64,000 nt of DNA from a virus (IMGVR_UViG_3300037484_000333:8635-72634), one strand, 5' to 3'. Numbered from the stretch's first letter, positions 4,880 through 61,342 are shown. A program made the numbers and translations. Notes: a model not told the origin generated them from the sequence alone.

Positions 4880-6124
4880 ATAGCACCTACAGTCCAAACA
4901 TCTGCTAGAACTTCGTATGGCGCATCTCCCAGTGGAGTCGTCAAGAAGCTTAATCTGGTTGAGTTTATCGACCTGCTTACGCCGACTGAGGTTCCTGTTC
5001 TGAGCTACCTTGGGTGGGCTAAGGAAGCTGGTCCTGCAGCTGGAGCTGACTCGCTCAGTATCCCGTGCACCCAGCAAATCCACCAGTGGCAGAACGACGA
5101 ACTGGTTCCGAGTGAGAGCACTATCGCGGCTGGAGAGACTGACAACCATGCTACCACTGGTAGCATTACCCTGTCGGTAGCTACCGGTACTGGTGTCTAC
5201 TTCCGGACTGGTGATGTCGTTATCGTTGATAGCGTCACCACCACTGAGAAGCCGAACACCTACCTGGTTACTGGGGTCTCTACTGATGCCCTGACCCTCC
5301 TGTTTGTTGCAGGAACTGCTACAGGCGAAACCGCCAGTCAGGTCATCAGGAAGATCGGACAGGCTTTCCCCGAAGGGACTGACATCGCCGACACAGGTGT
5401 TGCCCTTTACCGTAGCACGTCTATCAGCCAGACTGAGAATTATCCTCAGATTTGGTATGAAGTCGCTAAGGTTACAGGCAGCCTTCTGTCTACCGAGGTC
5501 TACGGTATCTCTGACCAGCTGGGCTACCAGGTCGAGAAGAAATTCAAGGAACTGGTAATTCAGATGGAGGGAGCCTTCATCTACGGACAGCGGCACGCCA
5601 CCCTTAACTCTGATCGCTACACTGCTGGAGGTCTTGCCTACTTTGTGCGGGACAACGCTACCAACGCCACTAACGGCCTTTACCTGACAGCGGCTGGTGC
5701 GGCCCTCACTGAGAGCATGTTCAATACCCTACTGGAGAACGTTTGGAAGCAGGGCGGCAAGCCCGACACTTGTTTCGTTAACAGCACCCAGAAGCGGTAC
5801 ATGAACAGCTGGCTAACCCCCTACGTTCGGACAGAACGAGATAACCGCGTAGCTGGCATCTTGACTTCCCAGTACGAATCGGACTTCGGGACTATCAACA
5901 TTGTGCTTGACCGCAATGTTCGACAGTCCGACCTGATCATATGCTCGAAGGACAAGCTGGGTATCGGGCCTCTCAAGGGCAACGGTAAGGACAGGAGTTT
6001 CTTCTTGGAGACTCTGCCCAAGACCGGAGACCACGAACGGGCTCAGATCATCGGTGAGTACACCTTTGAAGTTCGTAACAACACCCAGGCTCACGGCTGG
6101 TACGCATTCTTGGCTACATCTTAA
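4880..6124 (+). CDS. Major capsid protein, DUF5309/SU10-like, 414 aa, predicted ATA start
   Basis: SD AAGGAG, 9 nt, then ATA GCA CCT; in-frame TGA at 4871 and no ATG/GTG/TTG until 5564. Motifs FIDLLTPTEVPVLSYLG, HQWQNDEL, MEGAFIYG, RYTAGGL, LPKTGDHERAQIIGEYTFEVRN. Confidence 0.85.
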   Translation: MAPTVQTSARTSYGASPSGVVKKLNLVEFIDLLTPTEVPVLSYLGWAKEAGPAAGADSLSIPCTQQIHQWQNDELVPSESTIAAGETDNHATTGSITLSVATGTGVYFRTGDVVIVDSVTTTEKPNTYLVTGVSTDALTLLFVAGTATGETASQVIRKIGQAFPEGTDIADTGVALYRSTSISQTENYPQIWYEVAKVTGSLLSTEVYGISDQLGYQVEKKFKELVIQMEGAFIYGQRHATLNSDRYTAGGLAYFVRDNATNATNGLYLTAAGAALTESMFNTLLENVWKQGGKPDTCFVNSTQKRYMNSWLTPYVRTERDNRVAGILTSQYESDFGTINIVLDRNVRQSDLIICSKDKLGIGPLKGNGKDRSFFLETLPKTGDHERAQIIGEYTFEVRNNTQAHGWYAFLATS

Positions 6125-6134
6125 TAGAGCATTC

Positions 6135-6163
6135 TGAGGGGTGGAAGTAGCCTCCACCCCTCA
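6135..6163 (+). terminator. 11-bp hairpin after the capsid gene (terminator/attenuator or mRNA stabiliser)
   Basis: TGAGGGGTGGA-AGTAGCC-TCCACCCCTCA; no U-tract. Confidence 0.5.
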
Positions 6164-6177
6164 CAGTGAGGTAAAAC

Positions 6178-6264
6178 ATGGGTAAAGACGTAAGGATTAT
6201 GGCCCCACCTGCTAAGGCAGATGTCGCTATCGGGCCATCCAAAGAAGAGAAGAAAGGGGGTTAG
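6178..6264 (+). CDS. 28-aa hypothetical protein
   Basis: SD GAGG plus ATG; MGKDVRIMAPPAKADVAIGPSKEEKKGG; fills the gap between genes. Confidence 0.4.
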   Translation: MGKDVRIMAPPAKADVAIGPSKEEKKGG

Positions 6265-6267
6265 AAT

Positions 6268-6699
6268 TTGACCGTTTCAGCTAAGTGGTACACTAACGCC
6301 TTTAAGGGTGCCTTCAACAAGGAGGCTGACTTCAACGACGGCACAGCTACTGTGATGTTGCTGACCAACGCTGCGGTTATCAACCAGATTACCAACGACT
6401 TCATCAGTGACCTTGATGGTAATGAGGTGACTGGTACTGGTTATACTGCAGATGGGCAGGCTCTAGTCAATGCTGCCGTCACCAATGCCACAAACGTTGC
6501 CACGTTCGATGCAGATGACGTGACTTGGGCCAACTCCACCATTTCCGCCCAGTTCGCCATCCTGTATATGAACACAGGTACTAATACAACCAGCCGAGTC
6601 CTCAGTTACGTGGACTTTGGAGCAACTGAAGTCAGCTCTGCTGGATCATTTACGATCACCTGGAACGCTTCCGGTATCGCAACCATCACAGCAGCTTAG
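6268..6699 (+). CDS. Minor virion structural protein (beta-rich)
   Basis: Pattern GTGYTADGQAL...TWANSTISAQFAILY...LSYVDFG...FTITW typical of a phage structural family. Confidence 0.6.
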   Translation: MTVSAKWYTNAFKGAFNKEADFNDGTATVMLLTNAAVINQITNDFISDLDGNEVTGTGYTADGQALVNAAVTNATNVATFDADDVTWANSTISAQFAILYMNTGTNTTSRVLSYVDFGATEVSSAGSFTITWNASGIATITAA

Positions 6700-6714
6700 T
6701 AGTAAGGAGTGACA

Positions 6715-8058
6715 ATGGACGCACAAAAGGCGGTAATAGCCGTCTGTGCATGGCGTCAAGTAGAGGTGGCTACTGCTACCTGTCTACATAAAGCTGACGA
6801 AGCGGGCTATAATGTCCACTACCATTGGAACGACGCCCTGATCTCTAGGGCGAGGTCTACTGTGGCTTCTAACTTCCTAAGGGAGTGGTCACAGTATGAC
6901 CTCCTAGTATTTATCGACACAGACATTGTGTTCGACTTGGATACTTTGGAAAAGGTCTGTGACCTTGCCCTAGAGAAACAGGCAGTGGCAGTCAGCCCCT
7001 ACGCCGTCAGGAAGGGAAAGCACCCCTGGCTGGCCTTCCGCCAGCTGGATGATGGTACCCCCATCAAGGTGGGACGAGGGACTAATCCTGTGCCTATAAA
7101 GTATGGAGCCACTGGATTTATGGCTATACCAAGGAGTATCTTGGAGAAGATGGCTGACACCCTTCCATACTGTAACGATCAGACTAGTGGTGGGTTGTAT
7201 CCATTCTTCCTCCCTATGACGCAAGAACAGCCTCAAGGGTACATTGAGTATCTGAGTGAGGATTGGGCTTTCTGTCAACGAGTGCAAGACTGTGGTATGG
7301 AAGTATGGTTACGCTCTGACACATCCGTAGGGCATATGGGAGTTTATGAGTTCACGTTGGCCGACGTGCTCAAGGACTCCGCTTTCCAGACTGAGAAGGA
7401 TTTGGCGGCTGAGGACCTGGCAGAGTACTGGACGTTCTTAGGTAGAGACCTCCCAAACAGTTGGGATGAAGGTGCAATACTCAAGGAGCTGTCAAACAAA
7501 TGGAAAGAAGCCGACCCACAAACTCCAGAAGAGGTGGATGAGTTCTATAAGGGCCAAGATGCTTACCTAATAGACTTGGTTAATCTCAACTCTATGGACT
7601 GGTACTGGAGAAAGGTTGGTAACATCTTAGCGCTAACCGGTGAAGTGGCAGACTTTGGAGGTGGCAACGGGTCAGTATCTATTGCCCTAGCTAGACGAGG
7701 TTGTAAGGTTCACTATGTTGAGCTTAACAGCCCTCAGAAGGATTTCGCAGTGTGGAGGTTCATAAAGCATAAGGTACCAATTGCTGTCCATTCTGAGATC
7801 AACGGACTTAAGAACCTGGACGCTATTGCGGCAGTAGAGACTATGGAACATATACACCCTGACGCCCTACCACAATATGCCCAACAGTTCTATGATGCAT
7901 TAAAACCTGGTGGGCAAGTGCGTACTGCCAGCAGCTTTGGCAAGAGTGAGGTCTCTCCAATGCACTATGATACAGCCCAACAGTTTAAGGAAGCTATGTA
8001 TACAGCAGGATTTACGGGAGGCCCATCTATTTGGGTTAAGAGACCGGAGGTGAGTTAG
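6715..8058 (+). CDS. GT-A glycosyltransferase fused to a class I SAM methyltransferase
   Basis: N-terminal ISRARS...LLVFIDTDIVF (DxD)...SEDWAFC...GHMG; C-terminal VADFGGGNG, VELN, ETMEH, LKPGG. Confidence 0.8.
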   Translation: MDAQKAVIAVCAWRQVEVATATCLHKADEAGYNVHYHWNDALISRARSTVASNFLREWSQYDLLVFIDTDIVFDLDTLEKVCDLALEKQAVAVSPYAVRKGKHPWLAFRQLDDGTPIKVGRGTNPVPIKYGATGFMAIPRSILEKMADTLPYCNDQTSGGLYPFFLPMTQEQPQGYIEYLSEDWAFCQRVQDCGMEVWLRSDTSVGHMGVYEFTLADVLKDSAFQTEKDLAAEDLAEYWTFLGRDLPNSWDEGAILKELSNKWKEADPQTPEEVDEFYKGQDAYLIDLVNLNSMDWYWRKVGNILALTGEVADFGGGNGSVSIALARRGCKVHYVELNSPQKDFAVWRFIKHKVPIAVHSEINGLKNLDAIAAVETMEHIHPDALPQYAQQFYDALKPGGQVRTASSFGKSEVSPMHYDTAQQFKEAMYTAGFTGGPSIWVKRPEVS

Positions 8059-9476
8059 TGGCTGATGCCAATGTAATAGCAGTAGTCGGTACTGCTGACT
8101 CAGCGGCGGGTGTACCTACCGTTGGGTCTGGAACTTTATACTATGTCAGTGTGACTGAAGGGAACGACAGTTATGACGGTACTTCACCGGTCTTTATTGA
8201 TGGTACCATCGGTCCAAAACTGACTATTGCCGGTGCCGAAGCGATTGTCAAAGGAGCTGGTGATATAGTTTATGTGGGACCTGGTACCTACTACGAAAAG
8301 GTGACACTAACCGATAGTGGGGTACTAGGTAGCCCTATTCAGTGGATTGCCGACCCGGAATGTTTACATTGTACGGGGGACTTTCCTGGTGTTGTGAGGT
8401 GGTCTGCTGCAGATTCTGACGACACGCAGGGTACCACGCCTGCTCTCGACTTCGGTAGCGTCACCTACGCTGAGGCGTGGGGGTTCATCTTCGACGGTAC
8501 CTACAGCACAACCAAGGGCACGGTCCACCGGACGGGTGGGGCGGATTTGACCTGCAAGGTGTACGACTGCATCGCGTCGGGCTTCAGTGGGATAAGGAAC
8601 GTCTGGACGGCCCGCTGCTTAGCAATGGGAGCGACTTGTTTCGGCAGTTGCTACAGCGAAAACTGCATCGCCCTTGGCGGGGCCTCCTATGGTTTCGGAG
8701 GGTGGGTGGACGGGTCGAGGAACAATCTGGCGATTGGGTGCTACATCGGGTTCAATCAGTCAGCCGCTTGGGCCATTACGATCTACAACTGCGTGGCCGT
8801 GGCCTGCAACATTGGCTTCTACGGCGGCGCTGCCGCTGACCAGCTGGCTGCACTCAAGTGCCACGTCTGCTATTGCCCGATAGGCTTCCAGGGCATGGTC
8901 ATAACCGACTGCACCCGCGCTTTGTGCCAGGTTCCCTACACCGCGTGCACCGGCGTCACCACTGAAAGCGATGTGGTTGTCTTCCCGAACTTCGATCTCC
9001 TGAAGCGGGCGCTGGAGCCGCTGCCTACAGACAGCCTATATGAAGCTGGCAACGCTACCTACGTTCCTACCACCACCGACTTGCTCAATCGTACTAGGGT
9101 GGCTAATACTATAGACATTGGTCCCTATGAGCTGGCTTCAGTCTCCCTAGCTTGGTCAGTTGCTAGCTATTACGCAACACCGCCTAGTATCACCATGGTT
9201 GGTGTTGGGGAAAAGGTTATCCAGATTTCGGCTGAGAAGGACGTAGAGAAGACCATCAAGGTCTGGACAAAATGTTCGACTGGAACCACCACAATGCCAC
9301 AAATAATCCTTAGGGGTAAAAGTATATCTGCCCAAACCGATACTGTAGGTACCGCCAACGCGTGGGAACAGTTGACTGTTACTGCCACACCCACGATAAA
9401 CGAGGTATTAGAGCTTATATTAAAAGGTCGGGAGGCGGCAAAGATTGTCTACTGGTCCGACTTCGAGGTTGTATAG
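8058..9476 (+). CDS. Right-handed beta-helix (pectate-lyase-like) virion/receptor-binding protein
   Basis: YYVSVTEGNDSYDGTSP...LTIAGA...VYVGPGTYYE start, Cys/Gly-rich beta-helix rungs, DIGPYE motif. Confidence 0.65.
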   Translation: MADANVIAVVGTADSAAGVPTVGSGTLYYVSVTEGNDSYDGTSPVFIDGTIGPKLTIAGAEAIVKGAGDIVYVGPGTYYEKVTLTDSGVLGSPIQWIADPECLHCTGDFPGVVRWSAADSDDTQGTTPALDFGSVTYAEAWGFIFDGTYSTTKGTVHRTGGADLTCKVYDCIASGFSGIRNVWTARCLAMGATCFGSCYSENCIALGGASYGFGGWVDGSRNNLAIGCYIGFNQSAAWAITIYNCVAVACNIGFYGGAAADQLAALKCHVCYCPIGFQGMVITDCTRALCQVPYTACTGVTTESDVVVFPNFDLLKRALEPLPTDSLYEAGNATYVPTTTDLLNRTRVANTIDIGPYELASVSLAWSVASYYATPPSITMVGVGEKVIQISAEKDVEKTIKVWTKCSTGTTTMPQIILRGKSISAQTDTVGTANAWEQLTVTATPTINEVLELILKGREAAKIVYWSDFEVV

Positions 9477-12400
9477 TTGCATATAAGGTTAACCACAGCC
9501 GGTGGACGCCTTCTAGCAAAGCTAGGCTGCACTGACCAATTAGTCTCGGCCGGTGGTGTTCTATATGATTCACTACCTCTTAGCACTGTCATAGCTCCAT
9601 CAGCTAGCACATTTTGGCGGGCTTGGTTCGGGCCTGCAGGTGAAGAAGGTAAGATACAGGTTGATGGTATTACCAACCTTCTAACTGGTACTTACCCTGA
9701 CAAGACTACCAAGACCATGCCTGCAGGGTTCCGTAACATCCACGGTTGCGAGTACGCATCAGATGTCGATAGAGTTTTCTTGTGCACCCGTCTTGGAGCT
9801 ACTGGCAGCACTGGCCCGTACCGCCTAATACGGATAAACCCCGATGACCTCGATGACTACGTTTACTATGAGGCGTCTTCTGCAAACTACTGGCGTGCTG
9901 ACTATCTAATGATAGTGGGTACCAGGGTCTTTGTGTTTTACCAAGACGCAGCCAACCCCACTAAACTATTGATTGACGAGTTCGATACTGAGGATGATGC
10001 ACAACCCCTAACCAAGGTCGCCACTCACGACCTTGGTACAACTTACGGTAGTGCTTGGCAGGCCGATACCGACAACACTTATATGTATATCGGAACTGAT
10101 GCTACCGAACTTTCCGGAACCGGTCACTACATTGTAAAGGTGCAGATCAGTGATATGACGGTGGTAGATAATGCCCAACTGACTGGTACTTGGGATGCCC
10201 ACCGAGGAACCGGTAGTGTGCTCTATGACTCGGAAACCGGCTCTGTGTTTATGGGGTGTCAAGGTGGCGCATTTATCCATAAGGTTAGTGCATCAGACCT
10301 GTCTAGTGAAGTAGTCCAGGGATACCCGTTAAAACACCTTAATGGGGAAACGAAGTCCAGTGAACTTATATCAACTACTGGGTATATATACCTAACTCTA
10401 GAGGGTGGGGCAAGTGTCCCCAACTACGTCGAGGGGCACGTTCTCAAAATTAGCAAGACTGACTTGGCTGACTATGAGGTAATACAGGCCGGGTCTGCGT
10501 CTAACAAGTCGGGATGGGTAGGTTTGCCAGAGCCTGACGGTGACTATATCTGGGTCGGATGGGCTGAAGGGGAGTTTGTACGAATTAAGGTGTCCGATGG
10601 TAGCCAGCAACACTTCTGGTTTCCTGAAACCCAGGTAGCAGAAAGTTGTTTTGCAGGCAGCAGAAACAAGTGGATACTGGGTACTTGGGACGACCCATGC
10701 AAGATAGTTAGAGTAGTCAACCATGTATCGGCAGATAATAGCCAACTCACCAGCTTAGCTCCACGATCCTCATGGGTTCCTGTTAGGCTATTCACTCAAA
10801 AGGACGGAACTATTACCGCCCTAGAGGCCTATACCGATGGTAGCAATAGTCTCGGCACTGGAGTGAACCTTAAAGGGAATACTGCTACCGACTATACAGA
10901 GCCCACCACTACCGAGCTTAACACCACTAATTATCCGACTTTAGCTGGAGCCACCGTTGACGCATTTGGTTGGACCTCCGGCTCACCTAAGTCCATTACA
11001 GGGTCGGCAACTGAAGCCGGTGATATCGGTGACTTCTTAGTCTTGCAAGTTAGCCTGGACTCTAATGCAGCTGGATGTACTACACCAACTGATACTCTAA
11101 CCCCCGTTTATACTACCGGCGGAAGCGATATAACCAAGACCGTAACTCTATATACAGAGTCAGAGAAGATCATATCAGCTGTCACGTCCACTGCTTCAGC
11201 TGCTGCCTTGTTGACCTCTGTCGCTGATAATATAGAAGTGCTTGCGGAAGTAGCTACTGTTAATGCAGCTGCCCTATCTCTAATAGTCGGTATTAGTAAA
11301 GCTATAGTTGTACCTGTTTCTGAGGCCGGTGCCACTGCCATTGCTCCTTCGACCTCAGCTGGAGTTATCATACTACCAGATGTTGAAGAAGCCGACGCCG
11401 TAGTATTCTCGCCTCTGATCTCAATAGGCTTGGCTAGGGCTCCTCCGGCAATTGAGGCTGCAGCCGTTGCTAATATACCATCTATCTCCACAGAAGCTAT
11501 CATTAGTGTACCTACTTCTACTGCGTCGTCAGAAGCGCCACCTCCAGAAATTCTGACTTCCGTAACCTTTGCTATAGCGTTTGCAGAGGCCCCAATCCCC
11601 ATCGTTACAACAGGAGCTACAATCACGTCTCCAGTGGCAGAAGCATCTGTAGAGACTTTAGCACCTGCTATCTCTACTGGAGCCGATGTCATACTTGAGC
11701 AACCAGCTATTTCGACAGCTGAGGCCCCTATTCCCACAATTTCGGCTAGTACTACCATATCCTCTCCAACCGCCACGGCCAGCTCCTCCATTGGTACTAC
11801 CATCATCGGCATTGGTAAAGCTATTGCACCACCAGTTGCCACATCTAACGGTTCTGCAATTCCGCCCCTGAGGACTTATGGGGTCTACGTTCAAATCGAC
11901 GGCGAGTCCAACGACGCCTATGAGTACGAGTTTAACGGCGGAGTCAACGTTGATAACTTCGAGATATTAGTCGTATCAGACGCAAGTGCTGAAGACAGGT
12001 ACTGGGGCGGCCTCCGATTTACTGGTGGAACTTGGCCTTCCTATGGCTCCACCATCACAGCAGCCCGTATCTCCATTCACATACCGTCTATAGTTGGAGA
12101 CGACCCTAACTGTGACATCTATGCAGAGGCTTCGGCCAACCCGTCGGCATTCACCACCGCCACTAATAACATCAGTGGCCGGACAAAGACCTCAGCCTCA
12201 GCTGAGTGGATAGCCAACGGTCTAGGAACAGGTTGGAAAAACTCTCCATCGCTAGTAACAATCATACAGGAGCTTGTGGACTCTTACAACATTGAGTCTA
12301 TAGCCCTAATAATACAACCTAATACTGACGTTAGTAAGTCCCTGATCATAGACGCTTGGGATGAATCCTCTCACACCCTTGGGGCCATCCTACACCTGGA

Positions 12401-15654: not shown

Positions 15655-15924
15655 ATGCACCCACGGTTGGGCAAGTTGCAAGAGAGGATTGATAGGGGTG
15701 GTGGGAAGGTTGGTATGCCAGCGCTCATAGAACTTGCTAATGCTCTTGACGAGGTGCTGACAAGGCTGGAGAGGATAGAAGGTTTGCTACCACCCATAGA
15801 GGCTTATATGGTACAGGAGACAAGGACCAACGAGATAGCATCAGTGGAGAGTGTATTGAACTTAGCGAGGAGACTACAGAAGGTAGAAGCGGAGGTAAGT
15901 AGAAATCGACGTACAGTGGGTTAG
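15655..15924 (+). CDS. Coiled-coil hypothetical protein (89 aa)
   Basis: SD GGGAGG then ATG at 15655. Confidence 0.5.
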   Translation: MHPRLGKLQERIDRGGGKVGMPALIELANALDEVLTRLERIEGLLPPIEAYMVQETRTNEIASVESVLNLARRLQKVEAEVSRNRRTVG

Positions 15925-16756
15925 CCTAGAAGAACTTAAAGACGAAATACGGACTTACCTGAGGGACTCTAGTACCACTGACCCACGGTGGACAGATGCC
16001 GAGATATTCCAGTCCGTCAGGGATGGTATCAGGCTGATGTCTCCGTTTGTCTTTACCACTGATGACTATGAACAAGTAGTTACTTCCGGTACTTACCGAT
16101 ATACCCTGCCTGATTACGTCTACAAGGTTAGGAGTGTTAAGGGTAGAGATACCAGTAGTACTGGTGATTGGACAGACCTTAGTTACTGGGAACAGGTCAG
16201 AGGAGTAACCAATAACTACTTCTATATTAGACGGTCGTATGGTGATTGGACTCTTATCCTTAAGTATGATAGGAATATGCCAGAGGTTATCGGCAACCTG
16301 ATATTGGGAGGTGATATGACCAACTCCGCTGCCGAGATGACGTTGGCGGCAGCCTCAGATAGCACGGCGGTAAGGTTGGAATCATTTGGGTACTTGAAGG
16401 TTGGCAATGAGATCGTGTCTCATACTGGGGTTTATGATACTAGTACCCACAAGCTGACAGTCTTGACTAGAGGGCAAAGAGGCACTACTGCTGTGGTGCA
16501 TACTAGTGGGGATGAGGTCAGCCCCATGATAGAAGTACCTAGCTCCAGGATTTATCCCTGGCTTATAGACTACTCTATGGGGAAACTGCACAGGATGCGA
16601 CTGACGGGAGTGGCCAGTGCAGACCTGGCAGGGGATGTTACCGCTATGAGGGAATATGACGCTGCGGCTGAGAGGAACTTGAGAAGGATTATACCACCTA
16701 AAAGTAGCAGGATCATATTCGAGAGGCCGAGGCGCTATTGGAAGAAGAGTACATAG
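15905..16756 (+). CDS. Head-tail adaptor (tail tubular A-like), predicted ATC start
   Basis: SD GGAGG, 9 nt, ATC; in-frame TAA at 15896. N-terminus SLEELKDEIRTYLRD...WTDAEIFQSVRDG is the typical adaptor helix and lies upstream of the first ATG (16037). Confidence 0.7.
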   Translation: MDVQWVSLEELKDEIRTYLRDSSTTDPRWTDAEIFQSVRDGIRLMSPFVFTTDDYEQVVTSGTYRYTLPDYVYKVRSVKGRDTSSTGDWTDLSYWEQVRGVTNNYFYIRRSYGDWTLILKYDRNMPEVIGNLILGGDMTNSAAEMTLAAASDSTAVRLESFGYLKVGNEIVSHTGVYDTSTHKLTVLTRGQRGTTAVVHTSGDEVSPMIEVPSSRIYPWLIDYSMGKLHRMRLTGVASADLAGDVTAMREYDAAAERNLRRIIPPKSSRIIFERPRRYWKKST

Positions 16757-22662: not shown

Positions 22663-23031
22663 TTAAACCTGAGGGACTCCACGTATTGCCCTCAGTGCCT
22701 GCACCTGTCGTTTGGGAGATACCAAACCGTAGATGCTCATGAGAAAACCGCGAGCACGTGCGCCATGTATTCTCCACTCGAGGATGTGCTGGGTATTGGA
22801 AAACGACGTTGGTGATGCGGGCTTCTGACGAACGCTGCCTCCAAACAGAGCCCTCATACGCTCAAGAGGCCAACGGTTCACTTGGCTGATGCATACCGAT
22901 GCTGTTACCCTACCAGAAAGGTAGGCACAGCCTTCGCCCTCAAAGAACCCAGCAGCCCACCGAAAGTCGCCAGGTGTGGCTATCTCAGTGGGCGCTAGGT
23001 CAGGTCGTAATCTTCCTAGGTTAACTCCCAG
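22663..23031 (-). CDS. Single-motif LAGLIDADG homing endonuclease, probable CTG start
   Basis: FRWAAGFFEGEGC motif lies upstream of the first canonical start (22881); frame closed by TAA just upstream of CTG at 23031. Confidence 0.65.
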   Translation of the reverse strand: MGVNLGRLRPDLAPTEIATPGDFRWAAGFFEGEGCAYLSGRVTASVCISQVNRWPLERMRALFGGSVRQKPASPTSFSNTQHILEWRIHGARARGFLMSIYGLVSPKRQVQALRAIRGVPQV

Positions 23032-23037: not shown

Positions 23038-23424
23038 TCACACCTTATCCCCCTTGATCGGGAGCTTATCGCCTCCGCCGACTGCGAACGTCATGACACA
23101 AAGAGGGTTAGCAATCGACCCGCCAGTGGTAAAGACCACATCAACCTGGTTCCCCGCAGACAACTGTGTTCCCTTAGTCACAAAGTCGCTGGCAGGTGTG
23201 CTGGAGGTTAGAGTGAACGCAGCATCCAGAATGGTAGTCCCACCGTATTGAACGTCAATGCTTCCGGAGGTGCCAACTGTACCGCAGTCTACCGAGCAAT
23301 GGACTAGTCGAGCCTTGGGAAACGGGATTGTGAAGCTGTAGGTGGCGGAACTAGACAAGGATAGTTCACCCCCTACACTGACCGTCCAGTATGATAGACC
23401 GTTAGATGGTGCTAGTGCAGCTAT
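23038..23424 (-). CDS. Beta-sandwich protein, possibly virion decoration, predicted ATA start
   Basis: SD GAGGAGG-TGAAATAAC-ATA; in-frame TGA three codons upstream; GSIDVQYGGTTIL...LSAGNQVDVVF. Confidence 0.5.
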   Translation of the reverse strand: MAALAPSNGLSYWTVSVGGELSLSSSATYSFTIPFPKARLVHCSVDCGTVGTSGSIDVQYGGTTILDAAFTLTSSTPASDFVTKGTQLSAGNQVDVVFTTGGSIANPLCVMTFAVGGGDKLPIKGDKV

Positions 23425-27561: not shown

Positions 27562-27801
27562 CTATATTTTCTCCTCTTCCTTAGCGTCAGCCTTATCACA
27601 AAGCTCTATCAGACGGTGGAGGCAAGGTAGGCATAGGTCGCCGCTACCCAGAAACGGTTGACTGCAATATCCACACTCGGAGCAATCGTCGGGGAGGTAC
27701 CCACCCCCACCATAACCACTACTGCCCGCCCTCTCTAACCAGTAGAGTTCTGAGCGTTCAGCCTTTGTTAGTCTTTCCCACCATTCCTTTGTGCGTTTCA
27801 T
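27562..27801 (-). CDS. Zn-finger-like hypothetical protein
   Basis: CSECGYC...CLPC. Confidence 0.5.
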   Translation of the reverse strand: MKRTKEWWERLTKAERSELYWLERAGSSGYGGGGYLPDDCSECGYCSQPFLGSGDLCLPCLHRLIELCDKADAKEEEKI

Positions 27802-28289
27802 GCTTCTACCATAAACTTGTGCTGTTTCTTACTATAATACCGGAACATTTCGAGTAGCTGAATTCCCAGCCTAGCGGGACAAGGACAGTAGTCGATGATG
27901 ACCCCTTCATGCTGAATTGATTTCGCCATTCCTGACCAAGTTGCCCACCTAAGTCTAGGCTTGTCACCATAAGAAGTCTTGACCCAACCATCTGGAGTCT
28001 CGCCAAGAATGCCGGTGACCAGTAGTATTGGTACAGGGTATGCCTCCTTAAGTCTAGATAGTTGGTCAGCCAACCTACTTACCGGTATGCCCTTACGACC
28101 CTTACCTAGAGCTGAGGATATGAGGTCTTCTCCAGTCTTCCTCTCTATACCTACAGTGGTTACTGGTGTTATCATCAGTATGTCGGCTGACGGCAAGGCT
28201 TCCTCTACTACCTCCAGTCCGGCTTTCTCAAGGTACTTACGGACGGAGGCCCTTAGGGCTTTAGGGTCGCGGGTGTCGAGGATAACTAT
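27798..28289 (-). CDS. ERCC4/XPF-like nuclease, predicted ATA (or ACG) start
   Basis: IVILDTRD...LPSADI...IERKTGEDLISS. The first motif is upstream of the first canonical start (28196); ATA overlaps the upstream TAG (ATAG). Confidence 0.7.
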   Translation of the reverse strand: MVILDTRDPKALRASVRKYLEKAGLEVVEEALPSADILMITPVTTVGIERKTGEDLISSALGKGRKGIPVSRLADQLSRLKEAYPVPILLVTGILGETPDGWVKTSYGDKPRLRWATWSGMAKSIQHEGVIIDYCPCPARLGIQLLEMFRYYSKKQHKFMVEA

Positions 28290-28528
28290 ACCCTTCGTAG
28301 CAAGTCAACATCCTCTACAGGAACAGCGACGAGGCGGTACTTACGATTGCGCCGGAACTTGCCCTTTATCGGATAAAGGGTGCACGCATTATCCCCATAG
28401 TCATCTCCAAGAACTATACAGTAACTCCCCCTTCGGGCAAGAAGCCCACCCGTCCTGCTAAACGGGTCAAGCAAGTCTCCTTCAAGCTTAGTGGTCTCAT
28501 ACGTTCCTAGATAGACTTCTTCAATCAT
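28286..28528 (-). CDS. Hypothetical protein
   Basis: Coupled ORF. Confidence 0.45.
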   Translation of the reverse strand: MIEEVYLGTYETTKLEGDLLDPFSRTGGLLARRGSYCIVLGDDYGDNACTLYPIKGKFRRNRKYRLVAVPVEDVDLLRRV

Positions 28529-35904: not shown

Positions 35905-36468
35905 CTAGCAACGCGAGTTGCCGCAACCCCAGCATTTTAGGCAACCTTCTTCGTGGACCATAATAGACCCACACTCTGGACAACACACACCGGAGCTATT
36001 ACGTATCGGCACGATCAGTGTCTCTATAGTGGTTTCACCTGGTGGAGGTGGGGGAGAATCGAACTCCCCGTCCTGAAGAGGGTTAGCCCCGTACTCCGAG
36101 ACATCTTCTTCAGTCTTCCTTTCACCCCCAAGAAACCTTCGCTCAAGCCACTGAGCAATGTAGTCTAGTATACTAGTCGCCTTCGGAATATCAGGGTTAC
36201 TAGTCAATCCAGCAGGGTCATACCGAGTCTGTTTGAACTTCCGCGTTATGTCTTCCAGTGGGACGTGGTACTGTAAGGCTATCGAAACCATGATAGCGAA
36301 GGCGTCCACCAACCCGCTGACTGTTGACCCCTGCTTACTTACAAATACAAAGAGTTCTCCTGGTGTGCCATCCTCGAACAACCCTACTATAAGGTAGCCT
36401 GACTGGTCTGCTATTTTGAACTTATGTGTAACACTGTTTCTGTCAGCCGGTAGCCTCTTCCTCTTCGT
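35905..36468 (-). CDS. Stand-alone class II RNR C-terminal (TSCPD/NrdJb-like) domain with Zn ribbon, predicted ACG start
   Basis: KRKRLPADRNSVTHKFKI...GYLIVGLFEDGTPGELF...SKQGS...SILDYI...CPECG...EEGCLKCWGCGNSRC; in-frame TGA three codons before ACG. Confidence 0.75.
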   Translation of the reverse strand, partial: TKRKRLPADRNSVTHKFKIADQSGYLIVGLFEDGTPGELFVFVSKQGSTVSGLVDAFAIMVSIALQYHVPLEDITRKFKQTRYDPAGLTSNPDIPKATSILDYIAQWLERRFLGGERKTEEDVSEYGANPLQDGEFDSPPPPPGETTIETLIVPIRNSSGVCCPECGSIMVHEEGCLKCWGCGNSRC

Positions 36469-36667: not shown

Positions 36668-36861
36668 ACTAACAACCTATCGCCGGAATAATAAAGGGTT
36701 GGGTGCGTAGAGTACAATGGTACGCAATACCAGACTGTAACCCGCCCACCATCGGACTGGATGGTAGTATAACCTCCAGCATGGGACATATTCCTGATAC
36801 GTCCTCTGGCCCCATAGTACTTGAACATGGCTGTCATACCTGATACAGTTTTCAACCCCAT
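36664..36861 (-). CDS. Hypothetical protein
   Basis: Shares YYGARG with the adjacent ORF. Confidence 0.4.
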   Translation of the reverse strand: MGLKTVSGMTAMFKYYGARGRIRNMSHAGGYTTIQSDGGRVTVWYCVPLYSTHPTLYYSGDRLLV

Positions 36862-38849
36862 GTTTGACCTACCTTCACCTTGAATCGTATGGGCAGCATG
36901 AACTCAACAGTCTTGGCTACCTCGTGTACCGCTTCTTCTAATTCACGCACCAACTTCATAGGACAGTAGTAGTCTAGCGAATCGTGAATCTGGTCGAAAA
37001 AATGCGCCCCTAGCTGTTGGGCATACTTGTCCATACGCACCATGCAGACCTTTATTATATCACCAGACGCAGTGCTCTGCACTACTCCATTAGCTAGTTC
37101 CTTGCGGGCATGGCTCCTGGTACGCGGGTCGTTAGACTGTATGGCCTCAAAGTACATACGGTGGCCTAACCAGGACTCTGCATACCCACGTTCCATGCCC
37201 TCAGCTATGATACCTTCTTGCCACACCCTCAGTACGTGGAGCTTACCTCTTACTATCTGTAGCCTTCTTCTAGCCTCTTGCAGCTCCACATTGTCACGTT
37301 TAGCGCACTCCCTCTCACTCAACCCATATATACCTGCAAAGTTATACACCTTGCCGGTCTTACGTTGTGTAGGTGAGGGATAATCAGTATTAAAGATAAG
37401 TCCACCCGTCATACTGTGGAAGTCTTCACCAGCTAGCCAAGCCTCGACCATTATAGGGTCCCAGCTAAGGCCAGCCATGACTACCATCTCTAGCTGGACG
37501 GCGTCAGCACTTACTATGGCATACCCTTCTGGTGGGACGACCGCGAGCTTTTGCTCCGCCGTGAAGTTTTGGGTGTTTGGACCTTCACTAGCGACTCTAT
37601 TGGTGATAGCCCAAGTTGTCTTGAAGCTAGGATGTAAGCGAGAGTCTGGATAAAGATGGTCGAGGATGACTCTCCACAGAGTCTTCGACGATCCGGCTTC
37701 TTTAATAGACAGTACCCTGTCAACCAGATCGCTAGTTCCTTTAAGGTGGGCAAGGGCTTTGGACCCTGTAGAGCGCGCACCTGCTGGCGTAAAGACTCTA
37801 GCTCTGAGTCCAAGATCATCAAACAGTAGTTTCTCAAGTTGCTTGGGGGATCGGTGATGGACGGGGAAGGTGGCTGCAAGGTGTCGTTCAAGTCTATCCA
37901 ACCCTTCTATTTGGGCCTCAACAAACTGTCGGTCTATCAGTATACCGTGCTTCTCAGCCTTTGTCAATATAGATTGGACTGGGAGATCAATATTGAGGTA
38001 CCTATCAGCTGACCCAGTCTCTAGCATCTTGGGCCATGTGTACTCCAGGTGTAGCCGACGTGTGGCGTCTGCATCCATACAGGCGTATGGGTACAAGCTG
38101 TCAAGGTCGTCCGCTATTACCTCTGTCCACTCCCGCATCTCCAAGCCAAGGTGTTCCCTGGCCAGTCGCTTCAGACCACTGCTTCCACGATAGTGACCGA
38201 GCAAGAAGGCTTGGAGCTTGGTATCATGGTAAGTGAGACTGTCGGGGTCCCATCCAAGGAATAGCTGATCGAAAGGTGCGTTGTGAAATACAAGAGTCCG
38301 GTGTCGGAGCGCGGACCATAACTCCTCAGTCTTGAAGCAGTCGACTGGAATGTAACAGCCAGTCCCTGGAGCCACAGAGAGAGAGACTCCAAGGAGTCCG
38401 TCACTGACGGGCTTAAGTCCAGTAGTTTCTGTGTCGATTCCGACAAGTTCTTCACTCCCTAAATACTCCACAACCTCAGCAAGGGTAGTGACGAGGCGGT
38501 AGTCGCCTGTGGTGATTGGTCCTGGAGGATTTATTGGTACACCTATAGGACCACTAACTACCGCCTCGTCAGGCTGGACCTTACACCCTGCCTTCTTAAC
38601 TATTACCTCTCCTGGGTGGGGTGAGGGCTTAATCCAAATAGTCTTCTTATCAGCGATGGCCAAGACCGAAAGTACCGCCGAGCCCTTAGTGTCTTGTTGG
38701 GCATACTCGTAGATACCCTCAACCCCACCCAGTTCACGAAGAGAGGCCGAAATTAATACGTTGACATACTGGGAGGCTAGGTCCTCAGACAGGTTGAAGT
38801 GTGTAGAGGCCCAGTCTTTAACCGACAGTACGTCAACGAAAAGAAACAG
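36852..38849 (-). CDS. polA: Family A DNA polymerase (665 aa), predicted CTG start
   Basis: Exo I GIDTETTG, FHNAPFD, YACMDA; SADAVQLE (A), KVYNFAGIYG (B), QIHDSL (C). SD GGAG, 7 nt, CTG extends the frame 62 codons beyond the track's TTG. Confidence 0.85.
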   Translation of the reverse strand: MFLFVDVLSVKDWASTHFNLSEDLASQYVNVLISASLRELGGVEGIYEYAQQDTKGSAVLSVLAIADKKTIWIKPSPHPGEVIVKKAGCKVQPDEAVVSGPIGVPINPPGPITTGDYRLVTTLAEVVEYLGSEELVGIDTETTGLKPVSDGLLGVSLSVAPGTGCYIPVDCFKTEELWSALRHRTLVFHNAPFDQLFLGWDPDSLTYHDTKLQAFLLGHYRGSSGLKRLAREHLGLEMREWTEVIADDLDSLYPYACMDADATRRLHLEYTWPKMLETGSADRYLNIDLPVQSILTKAEKHGILIDRQFVEAQIEGLDRLERHLAATFPVHHRSPKQLEKLLFDDLGLRARVFTPAGARSTGSKALAHLKGTSDLVDRVLSIKEAGSSKTLWRVILDHLYPDSRLHPSFKTTWAITNRVASEGPNTQNFTAEQKLAVVPPEGYAIVSADAVQLEMVVMAGLSWDPIMVEAWLAGEDFHSMTGGLIFNTDYPSPTQRKTGKVYNFAGIYGLSERECAKRDNVELQEARRRLQIVRGKLHVLRVWQEGIIAEGMERGYAESWLGHRMYFEAIQSNDPRTRSHARKELANGVVQSTASGDIIKVCMVRMDKYAQQLGAHFFDQIHDSLDYYCPMKLVRELEEAVHEVAKTVEFMLPIRFKVKVGQTWG

Positions 38850-39119: not shown

Positions 39120-39743
39120 CTATCTAGGCCAGCAGGACCACTCCCATTGCCGACCTACACTAACAAACCACGCTGCCGCTTCCCAAGCCACTGTCCTGTT
39201 ACATGGGTCGGCAGCGGCAAAGGGTGTGGTAGCCCAGGTGCTCGGCATAAATTGAAATGGACCTAACTCACCTGAGCTACCTACCTTACATTCCTCATAT
39301 TGGTGGCGGCTCTCGCACCACTCGACATACCATAGGGTGTCAAGAAACTGTTCTACATTATACTTAGAAACCGCAACTTGCGCTAATCTTGGGGGAGTCT
39401 CCCCGTTGTTCGGGATTGGATGTTGTCCTCCCACCCCTGAAGGTACCCCGCCTTGTACCACTCCTTCAGGACTTCCTCCAACTTCTCCCTGTCCTTGTAC
39501 CACGGTAGCGGGTTCAGCCGACGCCACCATAATGCTATCACTTGCGGCAATGAGATCAACTGTCGTAAGAGGCACATGGTTTATACTCCGAACAAGATCA
39601 AAAGGTTGAGCCATAAGAACACTGCGATCAACTTCGTTAAGAAGTCTATCATAGTCCTCCCTACTATCTACCTGCAGGCTAACCGCCGAACACCCTATAG
39701 CTATGGCTATGAGTATTGTGGCTATCAGCGGTAGGAGCCTCAG
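39120..39743 (-). CDS. Secreted/lipoprotein lytic transglycosylase (SLT/lysozyme-like), predicted CTG start
   Basis: VEWCES...GELGPFQFMPSTW...W.CW. The extension adds MRLLPLIATILIAIAIGC; CTG overlaps the upstream TGA (CTGA), 7 nt after GGAGG. Confidence 0.75.
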   Translation of the reverse strand: MRLLPLIATILIAIAIGCSAVSLQVDSREDYDRLLNEVDRSVLMAQPFDLVRSINHVPLTTVDLIAASDSIMVASAEPATVVQGQGEVGGSPEGVVQGGVPSGVGGQHPIPNNGETPPRLAQVAVSKYNVEQFLDTLWYVEWCESRHQYEECKVGSSGELGPFQFMPSTWATTPFAAADPCNRTVAWEAAAWFVSVGRQWEWSCWPR

Positions 39744-48547: not shown

Positions 48548-48548
48548 A

Positions 48549-48619: not shown

Positions 48620-48631
48620 GTTGTTTGCTAA

Positions 48632-55516: not shown

Positions 55517-56329
55517 TTGCGAAAGTCCTTACTCGCCTTCCCCTATTACGGAGGCAAGACTAAACATCTAGATAAGATACTACCACTTATTCCTCCACAC
55601 CACTGCTATGCCGAACCCTTCTGTGGGTCAGCAGCAGTCCTCTTGAACAAGCCGGTAAGCAAGGTTGAAGCCATCAACGACTTAGATGGTGATGTGCATA
55701 ACTTCTTCACAGTACTGAGGGATCGCTCGGATGAACTCATAAGGGCTTTGACCCTCACTCCACATTCCCGCATAGAGTATGCCGCTTCCTGCTACGCCAC
55801 GTCAGATGACCCTATAGAGAAGGCCAGACTGTTTTACACTCGGATACGGCAAAGCTACATGACTAAGCCGGTAACCACTCCAGGGTCATGGTCTTATGGC
55901 CCCTCATTGGACGTAGCCGGTAAGTTTATAAGGCACTTGGGGCAACTGGGAGAAGTTGCCATGCGGCTTAAGGAAGTTCAGGTTGACTGTTTAGATGCTA
56001 TAACCTTCATTAAGCACTGGGATCGCCAGTATACCTTCTTCTACATTGACCCTCCTTACCTGGCTGAGACACGCAGCTCCACAGGAGAGTACACCGTGGA
56101 GACCCGGGACTCCATGCACATGGCACTCATGGGAGAGTTGGCGACTCTCAAGGGTAAGTTCATGCTTAGTGGTTACCACAACTGGCTATATGACGATGTA
56201 GCAGAAGCTTGTGGCTGGAAGGTGGTTGAATGGACCACATGGACCACAGCACATCGTACCAGTGAGAAGACAACCGACAGTAGGGGTAGCCACCCCAAAA
56301 GGACGGAAGTCATATGGCTAAATTATTGA
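55517..56329 (+). CDS. dam: DNA adenine methyltransferase (D12/Dam class)
   Basis: FPYYGGK, EPFCGSAAV, INDLD, YIDPPY; target site unknown. Confidence 0.85.
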   Translation: MRKSLLAFPYYGGKTKHLDKILPLIPPHHCYAEPFCGSAAVLLNKPVSKVEAINDLDGDVHNFFTVLRDRSDELIRALTLTPHSRIEYAASCYATSDDPIEKARLFYTRIRQSYMTKPVTTPGSWSYGPSLDVAGKFIRHLGQLGEVAMRLKEVQVDCLDAITFIKHWDRQYTFFYIDPPYLAETRSSTGEYTVETRDSMHMALMGELATLKGKFMLSGYHNWLYDDVAEACGWKVVEWTTWTTAHRTSEKTTDSRGSHPKRTEVIWLNY

Positions 56330-57571: not shown

Positions 57572-58006
57572 ATGGCTAACGATGAGTGGGAGACACCACA
57601 AGACTTCTTCGATAAACTGGATGCTATATTCCACTTCACAATGGATATAGCCGCTAGTGAGGCTAACGCCAAATGCCCCATATACTTTGACAAGGAGTTC
57701 GACTCACTACACGCTCTCGGTTGGAGTGAAAACCAGGTAATTTGGCTTAACCCACCGTATAGCAAACCATACCCGTGGGTCAAGAAGGCTTGGGAAGAGG
57801 CTGAGTACAACACCATAGTCCTACTACTACCCTCCACCACCGGTGTCAAGTGGTTCCATGAGTTTGTATGGGATGACGAGACAGGTAGGTCAAAGGATAA
57901 TGTACTACTGTACTTCATACCAGGCCGTATCAAGTTCGTAGGGGCCAAGAGTACTCCACGCTTTGATAGCGTACTGGTGGTATTCAAGAGGAGACATTAT
58001 GACTAG
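57572..58006 (+). CDS. Phage N6-adenine DNA methyltransferase
   Basis: DEWETPQDFFDKLD..FHFTMDIAAS..NAKC...WLNPPYS...GRIKF. Confidence 0.85.
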   Translation: MANDEWETPQDFFDKLDAIFHFTMDIAASEANAKCPIYFDKEFDSLHALGWSENQVIWLNPPYSKPYPWVKKAWEEAEYNTIVLLLPSTTGVKWFHEFVWDDETGRSKDNVLLYFIPGRIKFVGAKSTPRFDSVLVVFKRRHYD

Positions 58007-58561: not shown

Positions 58562-58590
58562 TTGACAAGTATATAAGAATATGTTACACT
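58562..58590 (+). promoter_or_regulatory. Sigma70 promoter upstream of the packaging genes
   Basis: TTGACA-17-TACACT with TGn. Confidence 0.6.
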
Positions 58591-58799
58591 TAGGTAAGCG
58601 AAGCAACCCGACGACTATATATAGGTATAGTAGCCGTTAGGCTATAAGGTATTACATATGTTAAACGTGGGCATTTGTAAATTTTAACACCTCATTTAGT
58701 ACCTTAAGCCATACCACATCATCCTCATCCACATGCTCTAGCCACTTCTCGCCACGCAGCATAGCCTTCCTAGCCTCTTCCAGCTTTAGCAACTCTTTC

Positions 58800-59186
58800 T
58801 CAGTCAGCATCTTCTATATCCCTCGCATACCTATTCATCTGTGCAGCCAGGGTATCTAGCTGCCAGCCCTTCTTCCTTTCCTTGTCTCTGAACACCCCCA
58901 CCACAGCCTCGTGTACCAACTCCATGTCGGTACCCTTCAGCTTATCGGTAGTGGCCCCATAGTTCCAGGCCACCCACTTCAACCCAGCAATCAAGGCCTC
59001 AGTGAACACAGCCCTCTCTGACATATCCAGCTCCTTAGCCATAGCCTGGGCCTCATCCTTTAGCTCCCACGGTATATACACTAGCTTGGTAAACCACTTG
59101 GCTGCAGGGATTAGGTGACTTCCATAGTTGGAGCCTACCTCACCTACCATACCACCCCTCATGTAAGTCTTGTTACCACTACTCAT
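58800..59186 (-). CDS. Ribbon-helix-helix-like hypothetical regulator
   Basis: KLVYIPWELKDEAQAMAKELDMSERAVFTEAL. Confidence 0.4.
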   Translation of the reverse strand: MSSGNKTYMRGGMVGEVGSNYGSHLIPAAKWFTKLVYIPWELKDEAQAMAKELDMSERAVFTEALIAGLKWVAWNYGATTDKLKGTDMELVHEAVVGVFRDKERKKGWQLDTLAAQMNRYARDIEDAD

Positions 59187-59240
59187 ACCACCAGTATACC
59201 ACCCTATTGTGTTACAATTATGGTTGAGGAGGTGCGTCTA

Positions 59241-59372
59241 TTGGTAAGTAAGTCTAAGGCTAAGAAGATACTGAAGGATAAGAAGATCAAAGGGAAGAAG
59301 CTCTCAAAGAAACAACGAGGCTACTTTGGCCTCATTGCCGGTGGCAAGAAACCAAGACGTGCAAGTAAGTAA
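59241..59372 (+). CDS. Small basic protein
   Basis: SD GAGGAGG plus TTG; LSKKQRGYFGLIAGG. Confidence 0.55.
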   Translation: MVSKSKAKKILKDKKIKGKKLSKKQRGYFGLIAGGKKPRRASK

Positions 59373-59952
59373 GGCATACAAAGAGGTAGCAGAACCCGTC
59401 AGTCTAGCCCTATTGGAGGGTACCGACGTTATCAACCCTCTATCCATTGTTGGGGCTGCTATTGACGGGTTAACACCAATCCAAGAACACTTCCTCCTAA
59501 TGAGACTACTAGGAGGGTCTGACTCTGTAGCCAGGAAGGCTGCTCTAGTCAAGAAGGAAGAACTGTTTGACTGGAAGGATAAGGATGAGACCTTCCAACT
59601 AGCCTACGAGCGAGTATGTACTGAGCCTGATTTGCTACTCGACCAGGCTATGAAACTTATCCAGCTACTGGCTGCTGTACGGCATGTGGAGTTCCTAAGC
59701 TCTGGAGACTCAAGGGAAAGGCGCTGGGCCATCGACACGGCCTACAAGGCCAGGGAGTCTGGAGCCAGGGCTCGTAAGGACGAAGCCCAGGGTCAGTTTG
59801 AGAAGCTTAAGGCAGACCATGCCCAAAAGCTAGTTAATAAGGAATATGACCGAGATAGAGGAATACGAACGGTGTCTGGAGAGTCCGGAGTACTTCATGA
59901 ACGAGTACCTGTGGCTCCAGGACCCGATAACGTTCGAGACGATCAAGCTTAG
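59359..59952 (+). CDS. terS: Terminase small subunit (putative)
   Basis: HTH-like LTPIQEHFL..., directly upstream of terL; start uncertain. Confidence 0.55.
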   Translation: MQVSKAYKEVAEPVSLALLEGTDVINPLSIVGAAIDGLTPIQEHFLLMRLLGGSDSVARKAALVKKEELFDWKDKDETFQLAYERVCTEPDLLLDQAMKLIQLLAAVRHVEFLSSGDSRERRWAIDTAYKARESGARARKDEAQGQFEKLKADHAQKLVNKEYDRDRGIRTVSGESGVLHERVPVAPGPDNVRDDQA

Positions 59953-61342
59953 TCTTGAGGGGGAGTGGTCCTACCTCACTGACGTGCTGCATGAGTTTCT
60001 AGATACCCGTCTACTTATTATCCTAAAGTCTAGGCAGCTGGGTATCTCAACCCTCTGTGCAGCCTATGCCTTATGGACGGCTATGTTCAGGACTAATGCT
60101 AACATCCTACTACTATCCAAACGGGAGACTGAGGCCCAAAGGCTTATGGGCAAGATTAAGTTCATGAGAGACCACCTACCGGGTTGGCTGTTGCCCAGGC
60201 TTTTGAAGGACACTGAGAGCAAGATGACCTTCACAGGAGACTCCCTAGGCGGTGGTAAGTTCTCAGAAGGATCAACCATTATCGTTCTACCAGCTACCGA
60301 AGATGCAGGCCGCTCAGAAACAGCATCAATTGTTATTTGTGACGAGTGGGCCTTCCACCCCTTCGCAGAGCGTAACTACAGCGCCTTCAAGCCCACAGTT
60401 GATGCAGGTGGGCAGGTCATAGGCCTTTCGACCGCCAATGGCATAGGTAACCTGTTCTACAAACTCTATGCTGGTGCGAAGAAGCATGATAACAACTTCA
60501 AGCATCTGTTCCTACCGTGGCATCTACGGCCTGGTAGGGATGAGCAGTGGTACGAGGAGCGAAAGAGGGAGTACTCCTTCAGCCTACTACTTCTAAACCA
60601 GGAGTACCCTACCAACGACATAGACGCATTCATCATGACCAGCGAGTCGCCATTCGACGCGGACGCTGTAAGGTTCTACTTAGATAATGTGGTTAAGGAC
60701 CCTCTACCTAAGGGCAATCTCCCTACCACCTTGCAAACCCTGGCTGCACATGAGATCAGTGTATGGGAGCTTCCCCAACCACGCCAACAGTACGTCATAG
60801 GGGCAGACCCAGCCGAAGGCATCGGTCAAGACAAGTCAGAGGCAACAGTATGGGACATTGAGAATACACAGGTCTGTAAGATCAGCGGGCAGTTTGACCC
60901 AGACCAGTTTGCTAGAATCCTCAACCTAGTTGGCCATGTTTACAACCAGGCCTTAATAGCCGTGGAGCGTAACAACCACGGGCATTCAGTCCTTAACGTC
61001 CTGTGTCGCTACCTCAACTACCCGCGAGTCTACAAGCACTACGCGTATGACCAGAAGCTCACCCGCAAGATATATAAAGCGGGTTACCCCACTAACGTTA
61101 AGGAAAAAGCTATCATGATGGCTGACATTGTAGCTGCTGTACGTGAAAAAGACTGTATAATTAGAGATAGGGAGTTCTTTGAGCAGGCTACTATATTTGG
61201 TCAGCCTAAAGAACCTGACGATGCGGTGATAGCTAATGCCGTAGTATTGCAAGCCCTCAAGTCTCCACAGGCTAGGGGGAAGCAAAAGATAAAGGTATCA
61301 TACTCACCAATAGGAGGTTATAGGGGAGGCAGACGTAGATAG
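59846..61342 (+). CDS. terL: Terminase large subunit
   Basis: LKSRQLGIS, GRS, VICDEWAF, STANG, IGADPAEG, VERNNHG, DDAVIA. Confidence 0.95.
   Translation: MTEIEEYERCLESPEYFMNEYLWLQDPITFETIKLSLEGEWSYLTDVLHEFLDTRLLIILKSRQLGISTLCAAYALWTAMFRTNANILLLSKRETEAQRLMGKIKFMRDHLPGWLLPRLLKDTESKMTFTGDSLGGGKFSEGSTIIVLPATEDAGRSETASIVICDEWAFHPFAERNYSAFKPTVDAGGQVIGLSTANGIGNLFYKLYAGAKKHDNNFKHLFLPWHLRPGRDEQWYEERKREYSFSLLLLNQEYPTNDIDAFIMTSESPFDADAVRFYLDNVVKDPLPKGNLPTTLQTLAAHEISVWELPQPRQQYVIGADPAEGIGQDKSEATVWDIENTQVCKISGQFDPDQFARILNLVGHVYNQALIAVERNNHGHSVLNVLCRYLNYPRVYKHYAYDQKLTRKIYKAGYPTNVKEKAIMMADIVAAVREKDCIIRDREFFEQATIFGQPKEPDDAVIANAVVLQALKSPQARGKQKIKVSYSPIGGYRGGRRR

Follow-up and report, generated by a model that had tools for sequence, protein, structure and literature searches.

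Genome and source record

The window analysed here is a stretch of 64,000 nucleotides of viral DNA, bases 8635-72634 of the single 72,634-bp virus record IMGVR_UViG_3300037484_000333, and this report deals with nine of its genes, which appear to start at the near-cognate codons ATA, ATC, CTG or ACG. These starts had been proposed in an original prediction for the genes of the major capsid protein, the head-tail adaptor, the portal protein, DNA polymerase I (PolA) and five other proteins. We read all nine codons at the predicted positions and on the predicted strands, and at the level of sequence the observation of near-cognate starts on core genes is confirmed. Homology or protein architecture shows that in eight of the genes coding begins at or next to the weak codon, upstream of the first ATG, GTG or TTG, and these eight would need a non-canonical start. 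For the ninth, an open reading frame (ORF) beginning at 23424, the evidence consists of a ribosome-binding site and gene packing. The weak starts thus belong to 8-9 of about 95 genes (~9%).

The capsid and adaptor proteins carry the Pfam names SU10_MCP and SU10_adaptor, so the phage is regarded as a distant relative of SU10/phiEco32-type podophages. No GenBank phage showed similarity to the window at the DNA level, and the best capsid match from a cultured phage was 28% identical. TGA, TAA and TAG are all in use as stops across the whole genome, TAG being the commonest. The genome has 51% G+C with an unusual composition (CpG observed/expected 0.62, TpA 1.09), and genome-wide ATA makes up 43% of the Ile codons and AGR 54% of the Arg codons. 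This CpG-poor, ATA/AGR-rich composition is common to the relative G002 and is not found in the relatives G001 or G003. The ATA/AGR-rich codon usage is unlikely to stem from thermophily, as the IVYWREL fraction of 0.381 predicts a mesophile.

Overview of the nine sites

An in-frame stop was found 0-5 codons upstream of the proposed start at eight of the nine sites and 19 codons upstream in the transglycosylase-like gene, while the first ATG, GTG or TTG lies 24 to 230 codons downstream. The prediction that most sites follow a Shine-Dalgarno (SD) sequence was borne out: GGAG-type motifs stand at 6-9 nt, with strengths of -5.3 to -13.1 kcal/mol, the ATA of the ERCC4 gene being the exception. A spacing of exactly 9 nt had been given for the capsid, adaptor, portal and 23424 genes; it is right when counted from the GGAG or GGAGG run as written, and is 9-10 nt when measured from the GGAG core. 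The three overlaps with an upstream stop are real, namely ATAG in the portal gene (with the terminase stop), ATAG in the ERCC4 gene and CTGA in the transglycosylase-like gene. Three of the predicted gene names had to be revised: the gene called NrdJ-C encodes a stand-alone TSCPD-domain protein, the one called LAGLIDADG matches a PHROG annotated as HNH endonuclease, and the one called SLT has no Pfam hit. The protein calls of the record itself are short, with 106 amino acids (aa) for ORF 23424, 603 aa for PolA and 151 aa for the transglycosylase-like protein.

Virion genes

The major capsid gene (SU10_MCP; 4880..6124, + strand) opens with ATA 4880 behind the SD AAAGGAG (4865-4871), and an in-frame TGA lies at 4871-4873, two codons upstream. 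The predicted extension of 228 codons, from ATA 4880 to the first canonical ATG at 5564, was found as described, and the first canonical start is numbered codon 231. Counted from the ATA, the Pfam SU10_MCP match covers residues 22-409 (E 4e-65). The Met of 12 homologues (P0001-P0012; 35-48% identity, 93-99% of the protein aligned) falls on the ATA, and the homologous codon is ATG in 36 of 36 relatives from IMG/VR. The closest N-terminus (L024) reads ATG GCT CCT ACA GTC where the window has ATA GCA CCT ACA GTC. The capsid leader, searched for exactly in IMG/VR with ATA and with ATG as the start, gave no match. Two other origins for the capsid N-terminus were rejected. A scaffold-capsid fusion by frameshift is blocked because the scaffold frame ends at two TAA codons and the capsid frame is closed further downstream by TGA 4871. 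GTG 4870 overlaps the SD and is not in frame with the capsid gene.

The head-tail adaptor gene (SU10_adaptor; 15905..16756, + strand) has ATC 15905 at 9 nt after the SD CGGAGGT. Positions 3-102 of the Pfam SU10_adaptor profile match its residues 8-110, and the first ATG is residue 45. Seven adaptor relatives carry ATG five residues ahead of a conserved SL..L block, and the ATC in the window stands six residues ahead of it.

The portal gene (61339..63279, + strand) begins at ATA 61339, in the ATAG overlap with the terminase stop, 9 nt after the SD GGGGAGG. Portal homologues in the relatives G001, G002 and G005 can be aligned from residue 5-6 onwards, and the first ATG, codon 38, comes after a conserved block, R-I/V-x-x-D...Y..R..EF.R...WY.

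Replication genes and other genes

The DNA polymerase I gene (36852..38849, - strand) begins at CTG 38849 with the SD TAGGAGT, 15 nt past the upstream stop, and its first canonical start lies 62 codons further downstream. Its relative P0017, a JGI protein of 670 aa, is 73% identical over its whole length, and its opening V-FLFVDV aligns residue for residue with L-FLFVDV in the window. This first V is most simply explained by a GTG start, which would match the CTG in the window. Relatives more distant than P0017 gave no support for the PolA N-terminus. The same alignment bears on the idea that the weak starts are read by dedicated decoding, by a special initiator tRNA whose anticodon is altered or through a changed genetic code. 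Of the 17 internal ATA codons of PolA compared with P0017, 12 align with Ile and none with Met. ARAGORN detected no tRNA in the window or the whole genome and Rfam none in the window, and the four different codons go beyond what one altered anticodon could read. Dedicated decoding can hardly be the explanation.

The ERCC4-family nuclease gene (27798..28298, - strand) has three candidate starts, ACG 28298, ATA 28289 (the ATAG overlap) and ATC 28283, of which the ATA has the poorest SD spacing. The Pfam ERCC4 match opens at residue 8 counted from the ATA, and the first canonical codon, a TTG, is residue 32. No ATG, GTG or TTG was read between the in-frame stop and the ERCC4 domain.

The stand-alone TSCPD-domain protein gene (35905..36468, - strand) has ACG 36468 behind the SD ATGAGGAGT (-8.9 kcal/mol). 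The match to PHROG 23565 begins at residue 5 and that to Pfam TSCPD at residue 23, and the first canonical start is residue 30. ACG 36468 is the candidate start here, the adjacent AAG and AGG codons being possible alternatives. A split NrdJ joined by splicing was rejected, since the TSCPD protein is encoded as a stand-alone unit and the genes beside it are unrelated. Inside this gene, a 90-nt match to the Rfam tmRNA family (RF00023) was also seen at 36040-36129 (- strand), with 48.3 bits against a gathering threshold of 47. The match resembles a tRNA-like domain that lacks the mRNA part.

The homing-endonuclease-like gene (22663..23031, - strand) begins at CTG 23031, 6 nt past the upstream stop. 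Positions 6-106 of PHROG 5046 (HNH endonuclease) correspond to its residues 21-115, and its first canonical start is residue 51. ORF 23424 (23038..23424, - strand), an ORFan for which no homologues were found, probably starts at ATA 23424. This start lies 1 nt past the upstream stop and its SD, CGAGGAGGTG, is the strongest of the nine sites (-13.1 kcal/mol). The leader GTGAAATAAC-ATAGC is close to that of the capsid gene. TTG 23358, with a good SD of -10.6 kcal/mol, is an alternative start of this ORF.

The lipoprotein-type transglycosylase-like gene (39120..39743, - strand) has CTG 39743 in a CTGA overlap with the stop of an upstream zinc-ribbon ORF. The CTG is followed by RLLPLIATILIAIAIGC, which we read as a signal peptide with lipobox. 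The protein had no Pfam hit. Members of its family are roughly 200 aa long, with a hydrophobic anchor at the N-terminus and a CES...GPFQF..STW domain at the C-terminus, and such homologues are colinear with the 207-aa product from CTG 39743; one of them, P0031, opens with L-RWLFILAL. The first in-frame canonical start, ATG 39614, is residue 44, and the protein call in the record opens at residue 57.

It could be argued that the downstream ATG, GTG or TTG codons are the real starts and that the open frames upstream are untranslated leftovers. The automatic gene calls in the record do use such codons, and TTG 23358 in ORF 23424 has its good SD. Starting there would, however, cost the capsid protein over half of its fold, the portal and adaptor proteins their conserved N-termini, the ERCC4 and TSCPD domains their beginnings, and the transglycosylase-like protein its signal peptide. 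We consider this explanation very improbable.

Enrichment, ribosome-binding sites and gene packing

The enrichment of weak starts was determined for the codons ATA, ATC, ATT, CTG and ACG preceded at 5-10 nt by an SD with a duplex energy of -8 kcal/mol or lower. In gene interiors, a weak codon with a qualifying SD occurs within any 8 codons with P = 0.009. Among 28 ORFs with the first canonical start at least 20 codons in, five had such a combination in their first 8 codons, against about 0.25 expected, which is a ~20-fold excess (binomial P about 5e-6). The site-finding pipeline, which used an SD threshold, flagged nine sites in the window, and seven of them were among the nine of the original prediction. 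ATT 58450 was considered as a tenth weak start and rejected, as it sits in an AT-rich, promoter-like stretch.

The weak sites match the canonical ribosome-binding sites of the phage in SD strength and folding. The median SD strength was -8.9 kcal/mol at weak and -8.1 kcal/mol at canonical sites (p = 0.14), and local folding did not differ (p = 0.96). Compensation by stronger SDs or open mRNA structure was thus not seen at weak sites in comparison with canonical sites. Spacing after the GGAG core had a median of 10 nt at weak and 8 nt at canonical starts (one-sided p = 0.025, n = 7 vs 29).

Gene packing was also examined. When the weak starts are used, the distance to the upstream stop is -26 to +20 nt, similar to that of canonical genes, for which the 5th-95th percentile is -42 to +48 nt. 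When only canonical starts are allowed, nine open gaps of 60-700 nt are left.

The 45 confident canonical starts comprise 19 ATG, 14 TTG and 12 GTG, and 8-9 near-cognates come in addition. The share of ATG is ~35% of confident starts once the weak ones are counted. In well-annotated bacteria, ATG, GTG and TTG account for 81.8, 13.8 and 4.35% of starts (bioRxiv 10.1101/063800).

Start codons in relatives

We compared the start codons with those at the aligned positions of homologues. Homology reaches the weak codon and the codon itself differs: the capsid gene has ATG in relatives, and PolA has V. A gene for an XPD/DinG-like helicase extends this comparison, with GTG 33938 in the window, ATA in G002 (L052:10069-10071, + strand) and ATT in G001 (about L051:4007-4009, - strand), the assemblies being independent. 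In both relatives a conserved Q-motif-like block, YGL..W.PNQQD, precedes any ATG, GTG or TTG of the helicase gene. By these alignments the weak-start trait is judged to extend beyond the contig of the window, to the helicase genes of G001 and G002. The pipeline flagged two sites in G002 and none in G001 or G003; the ATT of G001 was not flagged because its SD fell below the threshold. An all-against-all test for homology-supported extensions was clean in the genome studied here and was confounded by near-identical loci in G002.

Start identity therefore varies among relatives (capsid ATG/ATA, PolA GTG/CTG, helicase GTG/ATA/ATT), and these comparisons indicate that start codons flip between canonical and weak over moderate evolutionary distances. 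This has consequences for the possibility of a regulated switch, in which IF3 would repress the weak starts early, and a lower IF3-to-ribosome ratio or a phage product would release them to time or dose expression. Such codons are known to be screened out by IF3, and the infC gene regulates itself through its AUU/AUA start (PMC13009471; 10.1101/063800). The longer spacing after the GGAG core at weak starts could mark a distinct class of sites. The flips among relatives, however, look more like drift than conserved control, and the weak starts, being found in the replication module as well as in the virion module, form no temporal class. On the whole we consider a regulated switch unlikely.

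More specific ideas of this kind in the original prediction were not supported. For a phage factor lowering IF3 fidelity, six-frame searches at E <= 1 detected no IF3_N or IF3_C domain, with positive controls found in 12 of 14 genomes, and the phage has no tRNA. Gating of late genes does not agree with weak starts in the virion module on the + strand together with the replication module on the - strand (PolA, ERCC4, TSCPD). For a link between the Ubl system and the weak starts, no evidence of any kind was found.

The relatives bear equally on the suspicion that the weak starts are assembly or sequencing errors, or that the genome is a non-viable variant with knocked-out starts. The window does come from a single metagenomic contig, and CheckV completeness was reported as 55. 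The two ends of the record are an exact 127-bp repeat, as expected when a genome of ~72.5 kb that is circular or terminally redundant is assembled from short reads by k-mers. No shared sequence context that would suggest systematic error was found among the sites, and independent assemblies of relatives carry the same kind of start. Starts make up ~0.4% of the genome, so nine random hits there would imply thousands elsewhere; the ORFs of 2832, 1905 and 1210 codons are nevertheless unbroken. An artefact or a dead genome is thus quite improbable. These three giant ORFs of the virion module are all on the + strand, at genome positions 4195-12690 (in the window up to 4056), at window positions 9477-15194 and at window positions 16757-20389; the Pfam scan gave no family for the last one.

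Probable initiation at near-cognate codons and the host

We think it probable that near-cognate codons serve these genes in ordinary SD-led initiation, that start-codon identity is under weak selection and that the host tolerates such starts, with no dedicated phage factor involved. The ordinary initiator tRNA would pair with the one-mismatch codons AUA, AUC, CUG and ACG, and a normal GGAGG-type SD would position each weak start, no more than 26 nt from the stop of the upstream gene. If SD-driven initiation in the host tolerates near-cognates, selection on start-codon identity would be weak, and ATG, TTG, GTG and the near-cognates could all be in use without any factor from the phage. The yield per mRNA from weak starts would probably be below that of AUG. 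In S. aureus, AUA and AUU starts behind extended SDs reach ~10% of the AUG level, up to 30%, and its own infC and ccpN start at AUA (PMC13009471). Tolerance of this kind, combined with abundant late mRNA, could make the ATA start of the capsid gene viable.

Several points weigh against this explanation. In E. coli, expression from such codons amounts to just 0.02-3% of that from AUG (10.1101/063800). Such a yield seems too low for a capsid protein. The ATA of the capsid gene appears to be a derived singleton, with no close relative showing persistence, because all 36 other capsids of the family start with ATG. The starts are predicted from sequence, and ORF 23424 is uncertain, as is the choice among the three candidate codons of the ERCC4 gene.

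A host with relaxed start-codon checking is plausible and would fit the flat spectrum of the confident starts. A stronger form of this idea is that start-codon identity is nearly neutral, with an IF3-type check in the host or infected cell much weaker than in model bacteria, or that the phage exploits a fall of IF3 activity in the course of infection, which would increasingly boost its weak-start genes. We put this forward tentatively, as a possibility that we doubt.

There are weak hints that the host is a peptidoglycan-bearing, SD-using bacterium. The genome has sigma-70-like promoters with extended -10, and the transglycosylase-like protein has a lipobox and a motif which we take to resemble Rpf. 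The Ro60 relatives and clusters are mostly from phages and Actinomycetota, and a capsid homologue occurs in a soil catalogue. The scan of genome contigs gave a sole match, 30% identical, in a metagenome-assembled genome of Vampirovibrio, which is uninformative on the host.

One promoter-like sequence lies at 52366-52401 (+ strand), where TTGACA, a spacer of 17 nt and TG-n-TATGCT end 7 nt ahead of the ATG at 52401, which has no SD. This ATG is probably the leaderless first gene of an operon.

Comparison with known systems

Near-cognate starts are known in bacterial infC (AUU/AUA), E. coli pcnB, and S. aureus ccpN and cvfC1 (PMC13009471; 10.1101/063800). The genes studied here resemble the infC/pcnB class in being SD-led, with a start one mismatch from AUG, a normal initiator tRNA, and a strong or extended SD at proper spacing. 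As for the position of the start, the near-cognate codon stands at the homologous start position in the capsid gene (ATA/ATG) and PolA (CTG/V), and within one residue of it in the adaptor gene (ATC). The differences are considerable. Members of the infC/pcnB class are single, conserved, low-abundance regulatory genes in which the weak codon attenuates expression, whereas the phage has such starts on 8-9 of its about 95 genes, the one for the most abundant virion protein included, and uses CUG and ACG too. The weak codon is also not conserved among the relatives of the phage.

NCBI translation table 11 lists CTG, ATT, ATC and ATA as initiators, and ACG is absent from it. Three of the four weak codons of the phage are therefore permitted by this table, and the difference is ACG. 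In annotated bacterial genomes, the alternative initiators of table 11 are given to well under 1% of genes (10.1101/063800).

Our literature searches found no description of near-cognate starts on this scale for phages. Near-cognate initiation is known in single regulatory genes; what is new is its occurrence on ~9% of the genes of a phage, including those for the capsid, portal, adaptor and polymerase. If such starts are widespread in uncultured phages, there would be bacteria much more tolerant of near-cognate initiation than E. coli is, and this bears on natural variation in IF3 fidelity and on how phages set the stoichiometry of their proteins.

The matter is also of practical importance for annotation. 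Gene finders of the Prodigal type take only ATG, GTG and TTG as starts, and such calling would shorten the capsid protein here to 186 residues. Should weak starts prove common in uncultured phages, which the helicase genes of the two relatives suggest, there would be a bias in protein catalogues, in capsid-based classification and in estimates of completeness. If the more doubtful idea of near-neutral start identity or of a fall in IF3 should be true, a whole class of uncultured phages would be mis-annotated, and their hosts would have unusual initiation fidelity.

Other loci in the window

A Ro60 gene with TROVE and Ro60 vWA domains lies at 46682-48343 (- strand). The non-coding stretch upstream of it matches an Rfam nematode sRNA family at 48548-48621 (- strand), with 38.1 bits against a gathering threshold of 38. 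We take this family to be a relative of Y RNA, which would fit Y-RNA-like genes beside Ro60.

TTG 59241 stands behind TTGAGGAGGTG (-13.5 kcal/mol), which is the strongest SD in the genome. This TTG opens a lysine-rich frame of 43 codons (59241-59372, + strand), which overlaps a frame of 225 codons (59275-59952, + strand) with a weak start of its own. Neither frame had a PHROG or Pfam match. This arrangement, which lies just ahead of the terminase gene, may reflect a +1 frameshift or a pair of overlapping genes.

In the Ubl operon, a gene for a ThiF-type E1 protein (41201-41881, - strand) adjoins a Prok-JAB gene (41892-42710, - strand), and the 536-codon open frame upstream of the latter (42722-44332) had no Pfam match. 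The window also has two DNA adenine methyltransferase genes on the + strand, at 55517-56329 and 57572-58006, one of the D12 class and one Dam-like.

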